IMG/VR virus record: IMGVR_UViG_2609459791_000005
Span: 1-7,996 of that record
Direction: 5' to 3' (one strand)
Source of the DNA: a virus
Lineage: Duplodnaviria; Heunggongvirae; Uroviricota; Caudoviricetes
Length of the DNA stretch: 7,996 bases
Part shown: positions 1-7,996 of the stretch, piece after piece
Layout: each line of letters starts with the position of its first letter
How positions within the stretch are numbered: the first letter of the stretch is position 1
The notes under the pieces: model-generated
Databases searched by the model: none
What the model was told of the DNA's origin: nothing
Seen by the model: only the letters and a program-made list of their open reading frames with translations
Translations under genes and position numbers: made by a program

Positions 1-222
1 ATGCAATCCATTAACTTCCGTACCGCGCGTGGCAACCTTTCTGAAGTGCTCAACAATGTTGAAGCCGGGGAAGAGGTTGAAATCACCCGCAGAGGCCGTG
101 AGCCAGCAGTAATTGTCAGCAAGGCTACTTTCGAAGCCTACAAAAAAGCGGCGCTGGATGCTGAATTTGCATCCCTGTTTGACACCCTGGACTCCACCAA
201 CAAGGAACTGGTTAACCGATAA
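1..222 (+). CDS. phd: Phd antitoxin (type II toxin-antitoxin, Phd/YefM family), P1 prevents-host-death protein
   Basis: 73-aa [76 protein letters not shown] matches my recollection of P1 Phd in sequence and length. Its stop overlaps the next ATG (TAATG at 220-224). The window begins at its start codon, so its promoter is not visible. Confidence 0.9.
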
Positions 223-602
223 TGAGGCATATATCACCGGAAGAACTTATTGCGCTTCATGATGCGAATATAAACCGCTACGGCGGCCTGCCGGGCATGT
301 CAGATCCGGGTAGGGCAGAGGCCATTATCGGGAGAGTTCAGGCCAGAGTTGCCTACGAAGAGATCACCGACCTTTTCGAAGTCTCCGCCACCTACCTGGT
401 GGCTACGGCGAGAGGGCATATATTCAATGATGCCAATAAGCGTACCGCGCTAAACAGTGCGCTGTTATTTCTACGCCGTAACGGGGTGCAGGTATTTGAT
501 TCACCTGAACTGGCAGACCTTACTGTAGGCGCTGCGACTGGCGAGATATCTGTATCTTCTGTCGCCGACACGTTACGTAGATTGTATGGTTCTGCGGAGT
601 AG
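222..602 (+). CDS. doc: Doc toxin (Fic-fold kinase, death on curing)
   Basis: 126-aa ORF directly coupled to phd. It contains the Fic-type motif HIFNDANKR (about 417-443). Sequence and length match recalled P1 Doc. Confidence 0.9.
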
Positions 603-606
603 ATTA

Positions 607-786
607 ATGGCACGCAAATACAACAAATTGTCCCGTGAAGCGTTAAAGATGCTTCTTGATGGCGTGAGTCGCCGCGAGGTAAAGCAATACCTGGTTGGTA
701 AGCAAATTGGAGCCAGGACTGCTATTGCTGTGTTATGCCGTCAGGAAATGGTTGTGCTTAAACAGAGAATGCCGGGCAGCAGATAA
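607..786 (+). CDS. small hypothetical protein with helix-turn-helix-like segment; possibly the first P1 post-doc gene by synteny
   Basis: ATG at 607 lies 7 nt after a GGAG (596-599) and just past the doc stop. The ORF track gives an in-frame upstream ATG at 586 that would overlap doc. The segment SREALKMLLDGVSRREVKQYL looks like an HTH. No family recognised from memory. Confidence 0.4.
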   Translation: MARKYNKLSREALKMLLDGVSRREVKQYLVGKQIGARTAIAVLCRQEMVVLKQRMPGSR

Positions 787-813
787 AGCCCAATCAGTGA
801 TGAAAGGTGTGAT

Positions 814-1857
814 GTGAAAGCCGTAATTACTCCCTTTGTACAAAAAGAGCTTGGCGTCGCCACATTCAAAGTGGATCAGGAAGTCAGAAAGCTGGTGGAG
901 GCTGGCCGTAAATTTATTATGGAGCCGGTGCCGCGTGAGTTAATCGAGCACATGGACGACGGCCTCGTTGTTTCCGAGCAAACTATGGCAACAAATGAGG
1001 CGTTGCAGCCGTTTTTTAACAGCGATGAACTGTTTCGCCGTATTGGTGGAATTGACGCGCTGGTGGCGTGGTTGCGCAGGAAAGAGGGGCAATGCCAGGC
1101 CGCAGATCGTAGCTGCTGTGACAACCATATTGTCCACGCAGAACGAGACAATAGCGCGGTGTTGTTGTGCTGGCATCACGATAACCATTACCGGATGCGT
1201 GGTTTTAATGAGCTGAAAGAAACGCTGCATAATAATCGCGTTAACTGGATACTGGATGTCGCCCGTCAGGAAATGGGGCTTTCAGATGGCCATGATTTAA
1301 GTATTCAGGAACTGTGCTGGTGGGCTTTCATGCGCAACATGATGCACCTGATGCCGGAAGAAGTTTGCCGTATATCAATAAATAAGATGAAAGCCGCAAC
1401 GCAGGATAGCGGACCTCTGAAAGAGGCGGATATTCGCCCGTATGACGATCGCGCTACAGCATATGTTCAGATGATGGAAGAACGCGCCGCGCCGATGCGT
1501 GCAAAAGTATGCCCTGTGGATGTTGACTCCGACCCTGGCATGGCGCATTTCAAAATACCAAAACTGCAATCGCTAAAATTACCTGAGTACATGGACTTTG
1601 TTGCTTCCCGTCCATGCTGTGGGTGTGGAGCGGCGGGAGCTGGCGCTCACATTACGCCTTATATCGTTCGTCATAGTCGATTATGCGCGCATGACATTTA
1701 CGCAATTCCTCTGTGCCAGTCATGCCAGCGTGATATTGAGCGTGACCGCGATAATTGGGAGAAGACGCACGGTAGGCTGGCGATGCATCAACGATTGTTC
1801 TTTGATTACGCGCTTGGAGTCGGCGCTATCACAAGTCACTCGTCGAGCGTTAGATAA
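814..1857 (+). CDS. Cys/His-rich protein with two HNH-like / DUF968-like zinc-motif units; possibly P1 PdcB by synteny
   Basis: 347-aa ORF with GTG start at 814 preceded by AAAGGTG. Motif units are [25 protein letters not shown] and [38 protein letters not shown]. Three Chi octamers lie inside the gene. The name is from recalled P1 gene order, not a search. Confidence 0.6.
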
Positions 1858-1858
1858 A

Positions 1859-1875
1859 ATTGCTCTAATGTATTG
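1859..1875 (+). promoter_or_regulatory. C1 repressor operator-like site upstream of lpa
   Basis: ATTGCTCTAATGTATTG matches 14 of 17 positions of the P1 C1 operator consensus ATTGCTCTAATAAATTT as I recall it. It overlaps the -35 of the candidate promoter below. Confidence 0.55.
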
Positions 1876-1903
1876 CTATTTCTTTAATCGAGGGTGTTAT
1901 ATT
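1873..1903 (+). promoter_or_regulatory. candidate sigma70 promoter for lpa (-35 TTGCTA, extended -10 TGtTATATT)
   Basis: -35-like TTGCTA at 1873-1878 and TG at 1895-1896 followed by TATATT at 1898-1903. The spacer is long (about 19 nt), so the exact elements are uncertain. Confidence 0.35.
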
Positions 1904-1945
1904 CCACGTTGATTAGTTGACATGGGCTAATCAGTAGGTGACAGG

Positions 1946-2398
1946 ATGTTACTTAACTGGCAGGGACGCCACTTCATGGAAATAAATCACTCACGAATAA
2001 CATCGTACGAGATTGCGGATTACATGATCCGCACTAAATCTCTTCTATCAGCGAAAGAACTCGCAGCAATTCTTGAAAAGGAATACCCGCATCTGGATGT
2101 CGATAAGCGCGATGTTTATCTGCGCTTAAAGGCTATCGCTGTGTCTAAGTATTCGTCTGTTTTGATTGATGACAGTACACGCCCACGTAGATTTCAGATC
2201 CACTCTCTGAATCCTGAATTCTTTCGCCGTAGCCGCGCTCCGCGCCGGTTTGATGAAAAACTCCAGAACGAACTCTATATGACGCAGGACGAAAAGGAAC
2301 GCCGGGAGCACCAGCCTTGGGTAATGGCGCGTCAACTTTTCAATAAGGTGGCCCGTCAGCACCGTCATTACGGTAATGCCACATCCGCACGTATCTGA
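1946..2398 (+). CDS. lpa: late promoter activator Lpa (P1 gene 10) candidate
   Basis: 150-aa ORF immediately upstream of pacA, preceded by AGGTG (1936-1940) 5 nt before the ATG and by a C1 operator-like site. Assignment is by position and known P1 gene order (gene 10 next to the pac operon); the protein sequence itself is not recalled. Confidence 0.6.
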   Translation: MLLNWQGRHFMEINHSRITSYEIADYMIRTKSLLSAKELAAILEKEYPHLDVDKRDVYLRLKAIAVSKYSSVLIDDSTRPRRFQIHSLNPEFFRRSRAPRRFDEKLQNELYMTQDEKERREHQPWVMARQLFNKVARQHRHYGNATSARI

Positions 2399-2408
2399 TT
2401 GATTGCTT

Positions 2409-2428
2409 GCCCGTTCCGGGCCTTTTGA
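2409..2428 (+). terminator. weak candidate intrinsic terminator after lpa
   Basis: GCCCG-TTC-CGGGC hairpin (2409-2421) followed by CTTTT. The stem is short, hence low confidence. Confidence 0.25.
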
Positions 2429-2458
2429 CATGTGACTTTCGTTACCCTCGCGTCAAAA
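2423..2458 (+). promoter_or_regulatory. candidate late-promoter / regulatory element upstream of pacA
   Basis: Near-palindromic TTGACATGTGAC (2425-2436) plus a flanking inverted repeat TTTTGAC(2423-2429)...GTCAAAA(2452-2458), about 50 bp upstream of the pacA start. The pac operon is known to be Lpa-dependent, but I cannot recall the late-promoter consensus with confidence. Confidence 0.25.
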
Positions 2459-2483
2459 AGAGTTTTTACGAAAGGAAGCATAA

Positions 2484-3677
2484 GTGACCTGGGACGATCA
2501 CAAGAAGAATTTTGCTCGCCTGGCGCGAGATGGTGGTTACACCATCGCACAGTATGCCGCCGAGTTTAATCTTAACCCTAATACTGCACGTCGTTATCTC
2601 CGTGCCTTCAAAGAAGACACCAGGACAGCGGACAGCCGCAAGCCAAATAAGCCAGTCAGGAAGCCACTAAAAAGCATGATCATTGATCACTCTAATGATC
2701 AACATGCAGGTGATCACATTGCGGCTGAAATAGCGGAAAAACAAAGGGTTAATGCCGTTGTCAGTGCCGCAGTCGAGAATGCGAAGCGCCAAAATAAGCG
2801 CATAAATGATCGTTCTGATGATCATGACGTGATCACCCGCGCCCACCGGACCTTACGTGATCGCCTGGAACGCGACACCCTGGATGATGATGGTGAACGC
2901 TTTGAATTCGAAGCTGGCGATTACCTGATAGATAACGTTGAAGCGCGGAAGGCCGCGCGCGCTATGTTGCGTCGGTCCGGGGCCGATGTTCTGGAAACCA
3001 CTCTTCTTGAAAAGTCTCTTTCTCATCTCCTTATGCTGGAGAACGCCAGGGATACGTGTATTCGCCTGGTGCAGGAAATGCGCGATCAGCAAAAAGACGA
3101 TGATGAAGGTACTCCGCCTGAATACCGTATCGCGAGCATGCTAAACAGCTGTTCCGCGCAGATAAGCAGCCTGATCAACACCATTTACAGCATCCGGAAT
3201 AACTATCGAAAAGAAAGCCTGGAGGCGGAAAAGCACGCTTTGTCTATGGGGCAAGCTGGCATTGTTAAGCTGGCATACGAACGAAAGCGTGAAAATAACT
3301 GGTCAGTGCTGGAAGCAGCTGAATTCATCGAGGCGCATGGCGGGAAAGTGCCGCCCCTGATGCTGGAGCAAATCAAAGCCGATCTGCGTGCTCTTAAGAC
3401 CAATACCGATGATGAGGAAAGGCAAACAGCCGTTGGTGGCCCTTCTCTTGAAGATCTGGACAAAGTTGCGCGAGAACGGGCCGCCAACCGCCGCGCCGAT
3501 GCCGCATTGTGGATTGAGCAGCGTAGGGAAGAAATCGCCGATATCGTTGATACAGGCGGTTATGGAGATGTTGATACTGAAGGTGTATCAAACGACCCAT
3601 GGCTGGAACAAGACCTGGACGAAGACGAGGAGGAAGACGAAGAAGTTACCCGCAAGCTATACGGGGATGATGATTAA
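2484..3677 (+). CDS. pacA: terminase small subunit / pac-recognition protein PacA
   Basis: 397-aa ORF with GTG start 5 nt after AAAGGAAG. N-terminus [42 protein letters not shown] is HTH-like, and the C-terminal tail is acidic ([13 protein letters not shown]). The pac hexamer clusters lie inside the gene. Length matches recalled P1 PacA. Confidence 0.9.
2677..2835 (+). other. P1-type pac packaging site: four TGATCA hexamers, spacer, then three TGATC(A/G) hexamers, each carrying a Dam GATC
   Basis: TGATCA at 2677-2682, 2684-2689, 2696-2701 and 2711-2716. TGATCG at 2807-2812, TGATCA at 2819-2824 and 2830-2835. This matches the published P1 pac architecture of 4+3 hexanucleotide elements flanking the cleavage region. 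Confidence 0.85.
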
Positions 3678-4531
3678 TGGCCAGAAGTTGCGTAACGGAT
3701 CCACGTTGGCGCGAGCTGGTGGCGCTATATCGTTATGACTGGATTGCGGCCGCTGATGTTTTGTTCGGCAAAACACCTACCTGGCAGCAGGATCTGATTA
3801 TTGAGTCTGTGCAGGAACAGGGTAGCAAGACATCTGTTTCGTCTGGTCACGGTACCGGGAAATCAGACATGACTTCTATCATGATCATGTTGTTCATAAT
3901 CATGTATCCCGGTGCCCGAGCCATTATCGTTGCGAACAAAATTCAGCAGGTAATGACCGGTATATTCAAGTACATCAAGATAAACTGGGCTACTGCCACC
4001 AGCCGTTTCCCATGGCTTGCTGATTATTTTGTTCTGACAGAAACCGCTTTCTATGAGGTTACTGGTAAAGGTGTATGGACTGTAGTACCGAAGGGCTTTC
4101 GTCTGGGAAGTGAAGAAGCTCTCGCCGGTGAACACGCAGATCATCTTCTGTATATTATCGATGAAGCCTCCGGTGTCAGTGATAGAGCTTTCGGTATCAT
4201 CACCGGTGCTCTTACCGGACAGGATAACCGCATCTTATTACTGTCACAGCCTACACGCCCAAGCCAACGTCTAAGGAGGCTGCCAATATGGCTACTATCC
4301 CTACCCCAACTCATCCTGAATTTATCTGCCGCTTTTACTCCTGCCAAAAACGTCACTATCACTTCGTTATTGCACCAACAGAAGATGAGGCCCGCTCTCA
4401 GCTTCCTGACGCCCCATGTATTTTCTCTGCCCGTTTTTCCACTGATTCACGCAATTCTCTCAGTTACTGGTGCCTCCCTGTTAACGCTTCTGCTCAGGAG
4501 GGACTATGAGAACGTCATTAGTCACCCGTGA
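3677..4531 (+). CDS. pacB: terminase large subunit PacB, N-terminal ATPase portion only (truncated; 3' tail of the ORF is not protein-like)
   Basis: Start overlaps the pacA stop (TAATG at 3675-3679). Walker A GHGTGKS at about 3845-3865 and Walker [10 protein letters not shown] at about 4145-4171. Terminase-like sequence runs to QPTRPS (about 4264); the frame then reads a Leu/Ser/Pro-rich string to the stop at 4531. Confidence 0.6.
4288..4509 (+). CDS. icd: Icd-like small protein (host cell-division inhibitor family of immI-type antirepressor operons)
   Basis: 73-aa ORF preceded by TAAGGAGG (4270-4277). Its stop overlaps the next ATG as ATGA (4506-4509). The segment [28 protein letters not shown] resembles Icd-like proteins; length matches recalled P1 Icd (73 aa). 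Confidence 0.5.
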
Positions 4532-5624
4532 AGAGATGATCGAGGCAATTGAACAGCACATTGCCTGTATCAGTACCAGGGATATACCAGGCGTTATTGC
4601 CAACTACTTCATGATCACCAAACAACTTTACCGGAGAAAGGACAAGAACTCGGTTCACCGTATCCTGTTGTCTGATATCCGCGAATACCTGCTCGAACAG
4701 GGTCATCTGAATTACGCAACCGTCGCAGCCGAAGCACGCAAGGAGGCACACAGAATGAAAGCAACTAACGTTAAATCAGAAAAAATTCATGCACCTTCAG
4801 TTCAGGAATCGGAGCTGGTGGTTGTTCAGAATCAGTCTGATGAAATTCCCGTTCTGGAATGGCAGGGAGCGCGTGTAGTGACAACCGAGACTCTTGCTAG
4901 AGGGTATGGGACAGAAACAATCCGTATTCGCCAAAATCATCATGAGAACAAAGTACGCTTTGTTGAAGGGAAGCACTTTTTCAAAGTTGAAGGAGAATCA
5001 TTGCGCGAGTTGAAGCACAGAGTAGCTTTAAACTACTCTGTAAAAATTGCTCGCAATGTTCGCTCACTCACCCTCTGGACAGAACGCGGCGCAGCCCGCC
5101 ACGCTAAAATGCTCGAAACCGATCAGGCATGGGCATTCTTTGAAAAACTGGAAGACAGCTACTTCCGACAAAAAGAACAGCAACCGGTCGCAATCCCCCA
5201 GACGATTCCAGAAGCTCTGCGCCTGGCTGCCGAGTTAGCTGAACAAAAGCAACTTCTGGAACAGAAAGCCCACCAGCTAAATCAGCAGCTGGTGGCCGCC
5301 GCTTCTAAAGTCGATTTTGCCGACCGGGTATCAGTAGCTAAAGGGATCCTGATTGGGAATTTTGCAAAGGTCGTTGGACTTAAACAAAATGCGCTGTTTG
5401 CCTGGTTACGGGAGAACGGCATTCTGATAGCGTCCGGAGGCCGTAAAAATGTACCGTTCCAGCAGTACATCAACGCGGGGTATTTCACGGTGAAAGAAGT
5501 GGTGCTGGATGATGAAGATGGCTACCAGATACGGTTGACGCCTCAATTAACGGGTAAAGGCCAGCAGTGGTTGACGCGTAAACTGCTCGATGCTGGTTTG
5601 TTAAAACCGGTGGCGGCTGAATAA
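4506..5624 (+). CDS. ant: phage antirepressor Ant (ORF6N-like domain plus KilAC-like C-terminal domain); nested in-frame second start at 4755 (Ant2-like)
   Basis: 372-aa ORF with AGGAGG at 4495-4500. ORF6N-like stretch [47 protein letters not shown] and KilAC-like stretch [58 protein letters not shown]. An internal in-frame ATG at 4755 follows AGGAGG at 4741-4746. Confidence 0.7.
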
Positions 5625-5631
5625 TGGAAGA

Positions 5632-5661
5632 ATGCCCGGTTGATGCCGGGCATAATTTATT
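5632..5661. terminator. bidirectional intrinsic terminator between convergent ant and c1
   Basis: Perfect 8-bp stem ATGCCCGG / CCGGGCAT (5632-5639 and 5646-5653) with 6-nt loop, T-rich on both flanks. It sits 8 nt after the ant stop and directly after the c1 stop. Confidence 0.6.
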
Positions 5662-6508
5662 GCGCGCTTTCGGGGTTGTCGTTTACTGGCTGCCCCTTCT
5701 TGGTTTTACGGCTGCGCGTAACTGATGCGGCTGACTTAACCTTTTTCTCTTCGCGAGTGATGGCAATTTGTTTTTTTACATTTTCAATATCTGCCAGGCG
5801 ATATATTTTTGCTTGCGGCCAGCGGCCGCAGATGATCGGTTCTATGGAGTCATAAAGGCTAAATTTTGCTTTTTCGAATTCACCGTTGATGATAATTCCA
5901 TCACGGAGAGTTTCATCGCAGATAAACACGCCACACAGTGGCACATGGTAACTAACTGATTTACCATCATTGTAGTTAGGGCTACTGGAAATGTAGTGGA
6001 CGCGCAGCATTGTTTCGCTAAAGCCGTGTACGCGCATACGGAATTTTTCATCCTCCGGGTACTGCTTCATTAGCTCTTTTGTTGCTTCCAGGTTCTCTAT
6101 GTATTTCGCACTGTGCTCATTGATCCCCGCGCTTTTTTGGATGCGAATGTCCTTATCAATCAGATGAATAATGCGGCCAGCGGTCATGTTGACGCTGTTC
6201 ACAGCTTCTGTCTGATAAGTTGTAACCTTACGCACACCGCGAAGGATGTTAGGCACTGGATATAAAATAGTCTTTGGGATATTGAGGTCTGGGTACTGTT
6301 CCAGTTCCCGCGCCATTAAAGTCCATTTATCAATTTCAGCCTGAATGCTGTCAGTTTCTTTGAACGGTAGAACGACAACCGGGCGTACAGGACGACCGTC
6401 GCTGGCTGTATCAACGTGTTGGGCGCGTGCAACAGCTTTTTTTAGAAAGAGATCCCTGAAGCTGACGAACTCCTGGTACAGTTGTTCGCCGTAGACATAA
6501 TTTATCAT
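5657..6508 (-). CDS. c1: C1 master repressor of lysogeny (immC)
   Basis: 283-aa ORF MINYVYGEQLYQEFVSFRDLFLKK... matches recalled P1 C1 in sequence and length. Strong SD GGAGGAGG precedes the ATG on the minus strand. Confidence 0.9.
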   Translation of the reverse strand: MINYVYGEQLYQEFVSFRDLFLKKAVARAQHVDTASDGRPVRPVVVLPFKETDSIQAEIDKWTLMARELEQYPDLNIPKTILYPVPNILRGVRKVTTYQTEAVNSVNMTAGRIIHLIDKDIRIQKSAGINEHSAKYIENLEATKELMKQYPEDEKFRMRVHGFSETMLRVHYISSSPNYNDGKSVSYHVPLCGVFICDETLRDGIIINGEFEKAKFSLYDSIEPIICGRWPQAKIYRLADIENVKKQIAITREEKKVKSAASVTRSRKTKKGQPVNDNPESAQ

Positions 6509-6602
6509 TGATCCTCCTCCAGAATTGACATGGTCAATAACGCCCGGCTGAGAAAACCGGTCATTACTGACCTATATTATAGAGGGATCAAACGAAAATA
6601 AT

Positions 6603-6619
6603 AGATTTATTAGTGCATT
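6603..6619 (-). promoter_or_regulatory. C1 operator-like site (Op99e-like) overlapping the c1 promoter, between coi and c1
   Basis: Minus strand reads AATGCACTAATAAATCT, 14 of 17 matches to ATTGCTCTAATAAATTT. A TATAAT hexamer lies downstream on the minus strand at plus coordinates 6576-6581, consistent with an autoregulated promoter. Confidence 0.5.
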
Positions 6620-6828
6620 TATTGTGAGTCTAACTGGTTAGTTGCCATGAGATATTCGATTGTGTCAGTGAGGTCATCCAGGTCGTCTTGGGTGATGCGG
6701 TACTCCTGATTGGATATCTTTGAGTAGTGTTCAGCAATGGCGCGGGCTGCGTCGGTTTCGGCAGGGTCTACAGATAAAGCGTTAGAGCAATGTCTAACGT
6801 CGTCGATGGTTGGTTGAATGAAAGCCAT
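6619..6828 (-). CDS. coi: Coi, C1 inactivator
   Basis: 69-aa acidic ORF immediately upstream of c1 on the same strand. Position and length match recalled P1 coi. Confidence 0.8.
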   Translation of the reverse strand: MAFIQPTIDDVRHCSNALSVDPAETDAARAIAEHYSKISNQEYRITQDDLDDLTDTIEYLMATNQLDSQ

Positions 6829-6947
6829 AATTATGCCTCACTGTATTGACAACACAGAGCCTGAAGCTCTGACCTACTGTTTCACCCATGATCCATGCTG
6901 GGGTAATCTAACAACGTTGCGCTGTGTGTAAGATGAGCAATGCATAG

Positions 6948-7996
<1,049 letters not shown>

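Follow-up and report, generated by a model that had tools for sequence, protein, structure and literature searches.

Does the extra antirepressor cassette that some P1-like elements carry still hold what is needed to make two nested proteins from a gene whose start overlaps the stop of its upstream neighbor, as the immI region of P1 does, and from where would it be transcribed in a copy whose upstream part is gone? The window, i.e., the whole 7,996-nt stretch of DNA analysed here, comes from a P1-like phage-plasmid (Punavirus) and has the gene order phd, doc, pdcA, pdcB (DUF968), lpa, pacA, truncated pacB, an icd-like gene, an antirepressor gene, c1/coi and an IS5-family transposase, c1 and coi being on the opposite strand to icd and ant. 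Over all 7996 nt it is 100% identical to contig JNRK01000040.1 of NCBI assembly GCA_000704645.1, in which IS5-family elements flank the segment, and its sequence marks the element as a remnant of P1 flanked by IS5. The cassette is not P1's canonical immI; it is an extra module inserted, in some P1-like elements, between pacB and c1. It is likely that positions 4288-5624 of the window correspond to icd-ant1/ant2 of a P1-type immI cassette, present as an extra copy of the type found in RCS47, and that it would employ the coupling and two-start mechanism that its features suggest. Next to it lies c1 (5657..6508, - strand), recognized from its open reading frame, from the C1 annotation in relatives and from PF27008; it encodes the 283-aa repressor that is the presumed target of Ant. 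A terminator-like hairpin (5632..5653, + strand) is located between the convergent ant and c1.

Probable coupling of ant to icd

The upstream partner is an icd-like gene of 73 aa (4288..4509, + strand). Its product matches the NCBIfam model NF033153 phage_ICD_like with 41.3 bits (cutoff 25) and phrog_1426 at 2e-43, and 53 of the 73 residues (73%) are identical to those of P1 Icd. The Shine-Dalgarno (SD) sequence AGGAGG (4274..4279, + strand) stands 8 nt before its ATG. At the other end of the gene the icd TGA (4507-4509) and the ant ATG (4506-4508) overlap as ATGA (4506..4509, + strand), an arrangement that the preliminary description had pointed out and that can be read directly in the DNA. 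The same description placed AGGAGG 5 nt before the ant ATG: the motif is indeed there (4496-4501), and as it is followed by GACT the spacer is 4 nt, the discrepancy being one of counting. Taken as AGGAGGG (4496..4502, + strand), the ant1 SD has a spacer of 3-4 nt. P1 has GGGGGG and a 3-nt spacer at this position, and in both lineages the 3-4 nt at ant1 are to be set against the 8 nt at icd and at ant2.

Is the ant1 SD masked unless ribosomes traverse the end of icd? Single-sequence RNA folds around both starts, that of ant1 and the internal one considered below, gave no significant structure (z -0.28 to +1.26). From the two lineages together, RNAalifold derives a candidate consensus hairpin (4468..4506, + strand) in which an icd-coding arm, 4468-4477, pairs with 4497-4506, so that the 3' arm takes in the ant1 SD, the spacer and the first base of the ATG. 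It has 9 pairs, 100% paired, with 1 compensatory and 2 one-sided changes, and its score was reached by 36 of 500 shuffles; it is absent from the single-sequence minimum-free-energy (MFE) folds, which prefer other pairings. This weakly supported SD-sequestering hairpin would fit classical coupling. A further feature is the rut-like composition of the 5' half of icd, rich in C and poor in G (C/G up to 4.4), which is compatible with Rho-dependent polarity. Such polarity is reported for P1 icd.

The probable nested second start

The long, Ant1-like antirepressor ORF (4506..5624, + strand; 372 aa, 42.4 kDa) is 52% identical to P1 Ant1 and matches phrog_63, anti-repressor Ant. Its Pfam domains are ORF6N (PF10543; 2.1e-19, 70.1 bits vs a cutoff of 27.8) and KilAC (PF03374; 1.2e-30, 106.5 bits vs a cutoff of 25.3), the latter having the same E-value in the P1 protein. 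The first 83 codons (4506..4754, + strand), 63% identical to the N-terminus of P1 Ant1, form an Ant1-specific N-module. Within the last of these codons a second AGGAGG (4741-4746) had been noticed earlier, 8 nt before an ATG (4755-4757) that had been taken to be in frame, and so it is, since (4755-4506)/3 = 83. The motif is better given as AAGGAGG (SD2; 4740..4746, + strand), which corresponds to a ribosome binding site (RBS) annotated in P1. Initiation at codon 84 would give a short, Ant2-like product of 289 aa and 32.7 kDa (4755..5624, + strand). According to a domain search of this predicted product, it would keep ORF6N (residues 33-119) and KilAC (177-278) while lacking the N-terminal 83 residues, which agrees with what had been proposed. 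SD2 is read as the codons AAG GAG GCA, and AAGGAGGCA can be recoded synonymously as AAAGAAGCT. As to structure, an AlphaFold2 single-sequence model of the 372-aa protein was unusable (mean pLDDT 41.4, pTM 0.23), and a PDB sequence search returned noise only, with E >= 0.17.

In P1, icd (48470-48691, 73 aa) overlaps ant1 (48688-49731) by 4 nt and ant2 (48937-49731) begins at codon 84; the icd/ant1/ant2 geometry of P7 is that of P1. An older P1 record (X15639) annotates the RBS AAGGAGG 8 nt before the ant2 ATG, and the internal start, which reads CAAGGAGGCACACAGAATGA in the window, reads AAAGGAGGCACATAGAATGA in P1. That P1 immI yields two in-frame antirepressor products, and that its ant depends on the translation of icd, both of which the preliminary description had brought up, is known from the literature on the Ant1-Ant2 complex and the c4-icd-ant operon (PMC8546580, PMC8198154) and from the NC_005856 annotation. 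The interpretation of the locus in terms of P1 immI is thus supported, and its main support is the direct homology, on sequence comparison, to experimentally studied P1 genes. The KilAC region has ~86% nucleotide identity to P1. Upstream of it, the DNA homology of the N-terminal part to P1 stops at window position 4758, directly past the internal ATG, and therefore the internal start is a mosaic joint as well.

How exceptional are signals of this strength in the window? There are 4 occurrences of AGGAGGN{4,9}ATG vs 0.32 expected, a count that none of 200 shuffles reached, and all four are gene starts, those of icd, ant1, the ant2-like product and c1. Ranked by anti-SD pairing among the 180 ATGs of the + strand, the best three are icd 4288 (-12.0 kcal/mol), 4755 (-11.4) and 4506 (-10.8). 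The region of ATG 4755 is less structured than shuffles (z +1.25), in the window and in P1 alike.

Conservation and mosaicism

The sample for comparison, 80 IMG/VR loci together with phage records, contained 70 distinct haplotypes of the window lineage and 4 of the P1 lineage. In all 70 of the former both ORFs are open and the icd TGA, the ant1 ATG and the internal ATG are kept. Of the 70, 69 agree in all 16 nt that precede the internal ATG, the single change being synonymous and outside the SD, and AAGGAGG is invariant. Across the 74 haplotypes of both lineages TATGA does not vary, and AAGGAGGC ranks second in length among the invariant blocks of 470 nt. Third codon positions of the N-module are variable at 65 of 83 codons (78%), and those within the SD, 4742 and 4745 (codons for K and E, for which synonymous alternatives exist), never vary; comparative power is low, however, such invariance having a chance probability no better than ~0.05, and part of the SD invariance is due to coding constraint, as the SD overlaps the conserved residues K79-E80-A81. 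Values of dN/dS for the N-module, 0.011/0.149 within the lineage and 0.28/3.8 against P1, i.e., ~0.07, show that it is under strong purifying selection and hence that the long form is likely translated.

The N-module family is tiny. An exhaustive search of 1.84 billion cluster representatives gave 16 matches, and a word-indexed protein search with the N-module gave mostly fragments. A family of this size makes deep comparative analysis impossible, and the comparative evidence, which comes from essentially two lineages, is no more than suggestive. Within it, the unit of N-module, SD and ATG is joined to two types of body, one with ORF6N and one with the central segment of P1, and so the two-start design persists through domain swapping. 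One representative, of 467 aa, carries both central segments. Kinship of the N-module with Lpa, which PF25716 in the matches P0036 and P0037 had brought to attention, was rejected: BLASTP gives E = 5.5 and both matches are lpa::ant deletion chimeras.

Could it be that only the 372-aa protein is made, and that the internal AAGGAGG...ATG is conserved merely for the peptide R-K-E-A-H-R-M which it encodes? RKEA[H/R]RM is invariant in all full-length family members, the lineages that are independent number only about two, and the region has other invariant nucleotide blocks of equal length. However, the homologous P1 site is the annotated and published Ant2 start, complete with RBS, and the constancy of 4742 and 4745 contrasts with the 78% of third positions that vary. 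Add to this that the second-best anti-SD pairing of 180 ATGs is found here, in a stretch less structured than its shuffles, and that the mosaic joint comes directly after the ATG, and a single product seems very improbable. Another consideration is the origin of the site rather than its use. N-module and body may once have been separate genes, in which case the internal SD and ATG would be an old gene start, a history compatible with present use. A standalone homolog of the N-module, P0018, is 71% identical and ends just past the domain; phage D6 couples icd directly, by TGATG, to a Rha-type ant without the N-module; the P1 DNA homology breaks at the internal ATG; and bodies were swapped behind a constant N-module, SD and ATG. 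On the other hand, a stop between the N-module and M84 occurs in 0 of the 70 haplotypes and no such relative was found, while the standalone P0018 is in an unrelated gene context. Fusion of formerly separate genes is an origin that we consider rather unlikely, though worth bearing in mind alongside the reading preferred here, namely that the internal ATG serves as a second start.

The missing upstream part

The window differs from its intact relatives, for which 673R5, RCS47 and contig L020 (99.2-99.9% identical) were used in comparison, by ~1.2 kb that is missing at a junction at 4264..4265: in the alignment L020 1-1546 corresponds to window 2719-4264, and L020 2759-5468 to window 4264-6973. 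Homology to the pacB of these three relatives ends at 4264. What is left is the first 196 codons of pacB (3677..4264, + strand), the last ~298 being in the deleted piece. Codon 196 is fused to the icd leader, the resulting ORF extending over 3677-4531; past the junction the pacB' frame is out of frame with icd and continues to a TGA at 4529-4531. Also deleted are an operator-like ATTTGCTCTAATAAATT (L020 2446-2462) with a promoter region, an isrK/a1b1-like leader, and the C4 antisense RNA (RF01695, 75.9 bits) with its putative target a2, which is TTGGTCT in the relatives. L001, L002 and L020, all of them intact relatives, have RF01695 with 75-76 bits, and an Rfam scan of the window detected no C4 or other RNA (E<=1). 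Retained past the junction are the putative C4 target b2, the icd SD and everything downstream. Target b2 (CGTCTAAGG; 4268..4276, + strand) overlaps the icd SD and is complementary, with one G-U, to the C4 loop CCUUGGACG of 673R5 and L020; P1 has its b2 at the same position, and a2 and b2 were both assigned by eye from complementarity to the C4 loops of the relatives. It had been stated earlier that the same signals as in P1 are preserved. This holds for the icd-ant part, whose geometry is that of P1 and P7, and does not hold for immI regulation as a whole, because operator/promoter, C4 RNA and a2 are deleted and truncated pacB stands in their place.

Exact protein look-up finds the fusion protein on at least 16 public contigs, and the contigs with the deletion are 99.97-100% identical. 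The exact junction was not found in GTDB representatives, IMG/VR or 5426 complete E. coli genomes. On the evidence of these contigs the deletion is natural. The extent of their identity makes the signals kept after the deletion uninformative on selection.

Transcription and a possible mode of action

From where, then, could icd and ant be transcribed? No promoter belonging to the cassette itself is seen in the window, and an Op51/P51-type operator upstream of icd was not found, the operator-like sites in the window being only those at 1859 and 6603. The former (1859..1875, + strand) lies upstream of lpa and is a C1-operator-like site, apparently the equivalent of Olpa: it matches ATTGCTCTAATAAATTT with 3 mismatches, where 0.04 chance matches are expected, and P1 annotates Olpa at the same place. 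Then comes the equivalent of the late promoter LPpac (2430..2448, + strand), in a stretch, window 2399-2490, that is 100% identical to P1 90444-90535 with its annotated LPpac. It is, a predicted PpacB aside, the sole annotated-type promoter upstream of icd-ant on the + strand. Between pacA and icd no promoter-like or terminator-like site is seen on that strand. With LPpac intact and nothing of either sort intervening, late Lpa-dependent read-through seems the likeliest source of transcript, and any expression of icd-ant would probably rely on read-through from Lpa-dependent LPpac, without C4 control in cis. The out-of-frame pacB' ORF extends across icd to 4531, and icd initiation and coupling could thus be disturbed or the cassette be silent.

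On such a transcript, ribosomes would first enter at the icd start, where AGGAGG-N8-ATG 4288 is a strong signal, read the 73 codons and terminate at the TGA within ATGA. They would then re-start at ATG 4506, where the short-spacer SD can pair with icd-coding sequence, and so give the 372-aa long form. Ribosomes that load independently at AAGGAGG-N8-ATG 4755, where there is little structure, would give the 289-aa form without the N-module, and both forms would jointly bind and inactivate the C1 encoded adjacently, as in P1. The coupling, the two products, the C1 antagonism and the new transcriptional wiring are what we infer by homology to P1.

Might this copy instead be a relic that is no longer expressed, its promoter having been lost with the deletion and its signals surviving just because little time has passed since then? 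Between pacB' and icd there is neither a sigma-70-like promoter nor a C1 operator. Not only are the deletion contigs 99.97-100% identical to the window, L020 differs from it at just 4 of 2710 nt downstream of the junction, and near-identity of this degree means that there was no time for decay. Moreover, with pacB destroyed the element is a defective IS5-flanked remnant. Yet both LPpac, identical to that of P1, and the region of the lpa operator have been kept intact, and as there is no terminator-like site from pacA to icd on the + strand, read-through is plausible. Loss of expression would in any case concern the use of the signals in the window copy only and not what the signals are; we regard it as unlikely, without dismissing it. 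Further removed, and quite doubtful, is the proposal that the 1.2-kb deletion was a rewiring which brought a C4-free icd-ant under the Lpa-dependent late promoter in a small IS5-flanked remnant that has phd-doc, lpa, pacA, c1 and coi. Were that the case, a weakening of C1 would let Lpa drive the synthesis of more antirepressor, a positive feedback, and the cassette, freed of the C4 brake, could induce, or interfere in trans with, co-resident or incoming P1-like phage-plasmids. That the element recurs unchanged in at least 16 independent assemblies would then be due to selection and not to clonal spread alone. Whether or not the deletion had such consequences, the preferred reading of the cassette itself as coupled icd and ant with two starts is one of a known mechanism, and it is against known systems that it is best seen.

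Comparison with known systems

It is three decades since the icd-ant mechanism was elucidated in P1. The present cassette is that mechanism in a variant copy, and current mechanistic understanding is unchanged by it. What is modestly new is the constancy of N-module and internal start across swapped bodies, and the existence of a naturally decapitated, clonally spread copy. The former means that the 83-aa N-module and the internal start are a conserved unit that outlasts the swapping of antirepressor bodies. The latter, widespread and deprived of its promoter as well as its RNA brake, lends itself as a natural mutant to asking how much of immI control is needed. There is also a practical side. 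Among the common carriers of resistance genes in Enterobacteriaceae are P1-like phage-plasmids, and which of these elements can coexist, or induce one another, is probably determined by extra antirepressor cassettes that differ in C4 specificity.

With immI of P1 and P7 the cassette shares the 73-codon icd, the ATGA overlap, the homologous 83-codon N-module, the AAGGAGG-N8-ATG internal start at codon 84, the KilAC C-terminus and, at the icd SD, a putative C4 target of the b2 type. It differs in being located between pacB and c1 and not beside sim/kilA-repL, in having ORF6N as its central domain where the middle of the P1 protein has no Pfam match, and in lacking the operator/promoter, a1/b1, C4 RNA and a2, with truncated pacB fused upstream instead. 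Much closer is the ant module of RCS47, pTZ20_1P, vB_EcoM-673R5 and JL22, which is at the same locus and has 93-99% nucleotide identity over icd-ant. The extra ant insertion between pacB and c1 has been noted (PMC6906374). Unlike the window, the RCS47-type elements keep full pacB and a ~340-bp leader with C4. Their annotations have a single 'ant' or 'Roi' gene and show neither the coupling to icd nor the start of ant2. For RCS47-type genes of this kind in P1-like phage-plasmids, the appropriate annotation would be icd followed by an ant1/ant2 gene that has two products.

A more distant parallel is IsrK-orf45-anrP of Gifsy-1 in Salmonella, the Rfam isrK model matching the leader of the window's intact relatives. 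There also, translation of a small upstream ORF is needed for a downstream antirepressor and is RNA-controlled (review, PMC12197685). However, the proteins are others, a two-isoform antirepressor is not described for it, and the isrK-like segment is deleted in the window. In phage D6, finally, an Icd-like gene directly overlaps the antirepressor start, which implies coupling of the pair. The two overlap as TGATG, the antirepressor belongs to the Rha type (PF09669), and neither the 83-aa N-module nor a nested start is present. Since D6 would thus have coupling without the N-module, the coupling of icd to an antirepressor appears to be older and wider than the nested start.

Deletions at the pacB-icd junction and beyond

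The pacB gene of the window does not run to its end. At 4264-4265 (context 3677-4531) its codon 196 is joined to the icd leader by a 1.2-kb deletion that has destroyed the terminase large subunit it encoded, and with the missing DNA went the operator/promoter, the a1/b1 leader, the C4 antisense RNA and a2. The identical deletion is carried by at least 16 public contigs; it was not found in IMG/VR, GTDB representatives or complete E. coli genomes. Is this the only way in which the region has been curtailed? P0036 and P0037, proteins recovered in the search with the Ant1 N-module, are chimeras in which the N-terminus of Lpa is fused to Ant at a stretch of ten residues (letters not shown). Theirs is a second and independent deletion type, from other samples, running from lpa to ant with the loss of pacA, pacB, C4 and icd.

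On either side of the entire phd-doc to c1-coi segment (window 1-7996; 1137-10320 in locus L014) lies an IS5-family transposase gene; the two genes share about 94% identity and point the same way. In L014 the segment adjoins ttrA/metQ-like genes known from E. coli plasmids. The segment looks like a P1 remnant resembling a composite transposon.

Variation among relatives

At the a2/b2 positions, the 60 nt upstream of icd show at least four types of sequence (IMG/VR loci L026-L105), presumably different C4 immunity specificities, and several single contigs carry two or three icd-ant modules, e.g., UViG_2698536372_000019 (L030, L069, L094). In some relatives, of the JL22 type, icd starts with GTG in place of ATG, with the SD unchanged (L012 1498-1743, and 11 of the 70 distinct haplotypes). 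E. albertii and E. coli have a standalone homolog of the Ant1 N-module, 71% identical (L006 and L007, both 4001-4402). It follows DUF927 primase-like, SSB and ProQ/FinO-like genes, and no antirepressor body is attached to it.

The record of phage vB_EcoM-673R5 lists ant (L001 5117-5890) as ‘DNA binding protein Roi’, 257 aa long, and breaks c1 into several short CDSs, which suggests frameshifts or sequencing errors in it.

In intact relatives the leader 5′ of C4 matches the Rfam model of isrK, the Hfq-binding RNA of Gifsy-1, at 50-61 bits (L001 4657-4733; L002 4657-4735; L020 2538-2615), and a weak c4-a1b1 match overlaps it. The isrK match ties the leader of P1 type to the IsrK-orf45-anrP system of Salmonella.
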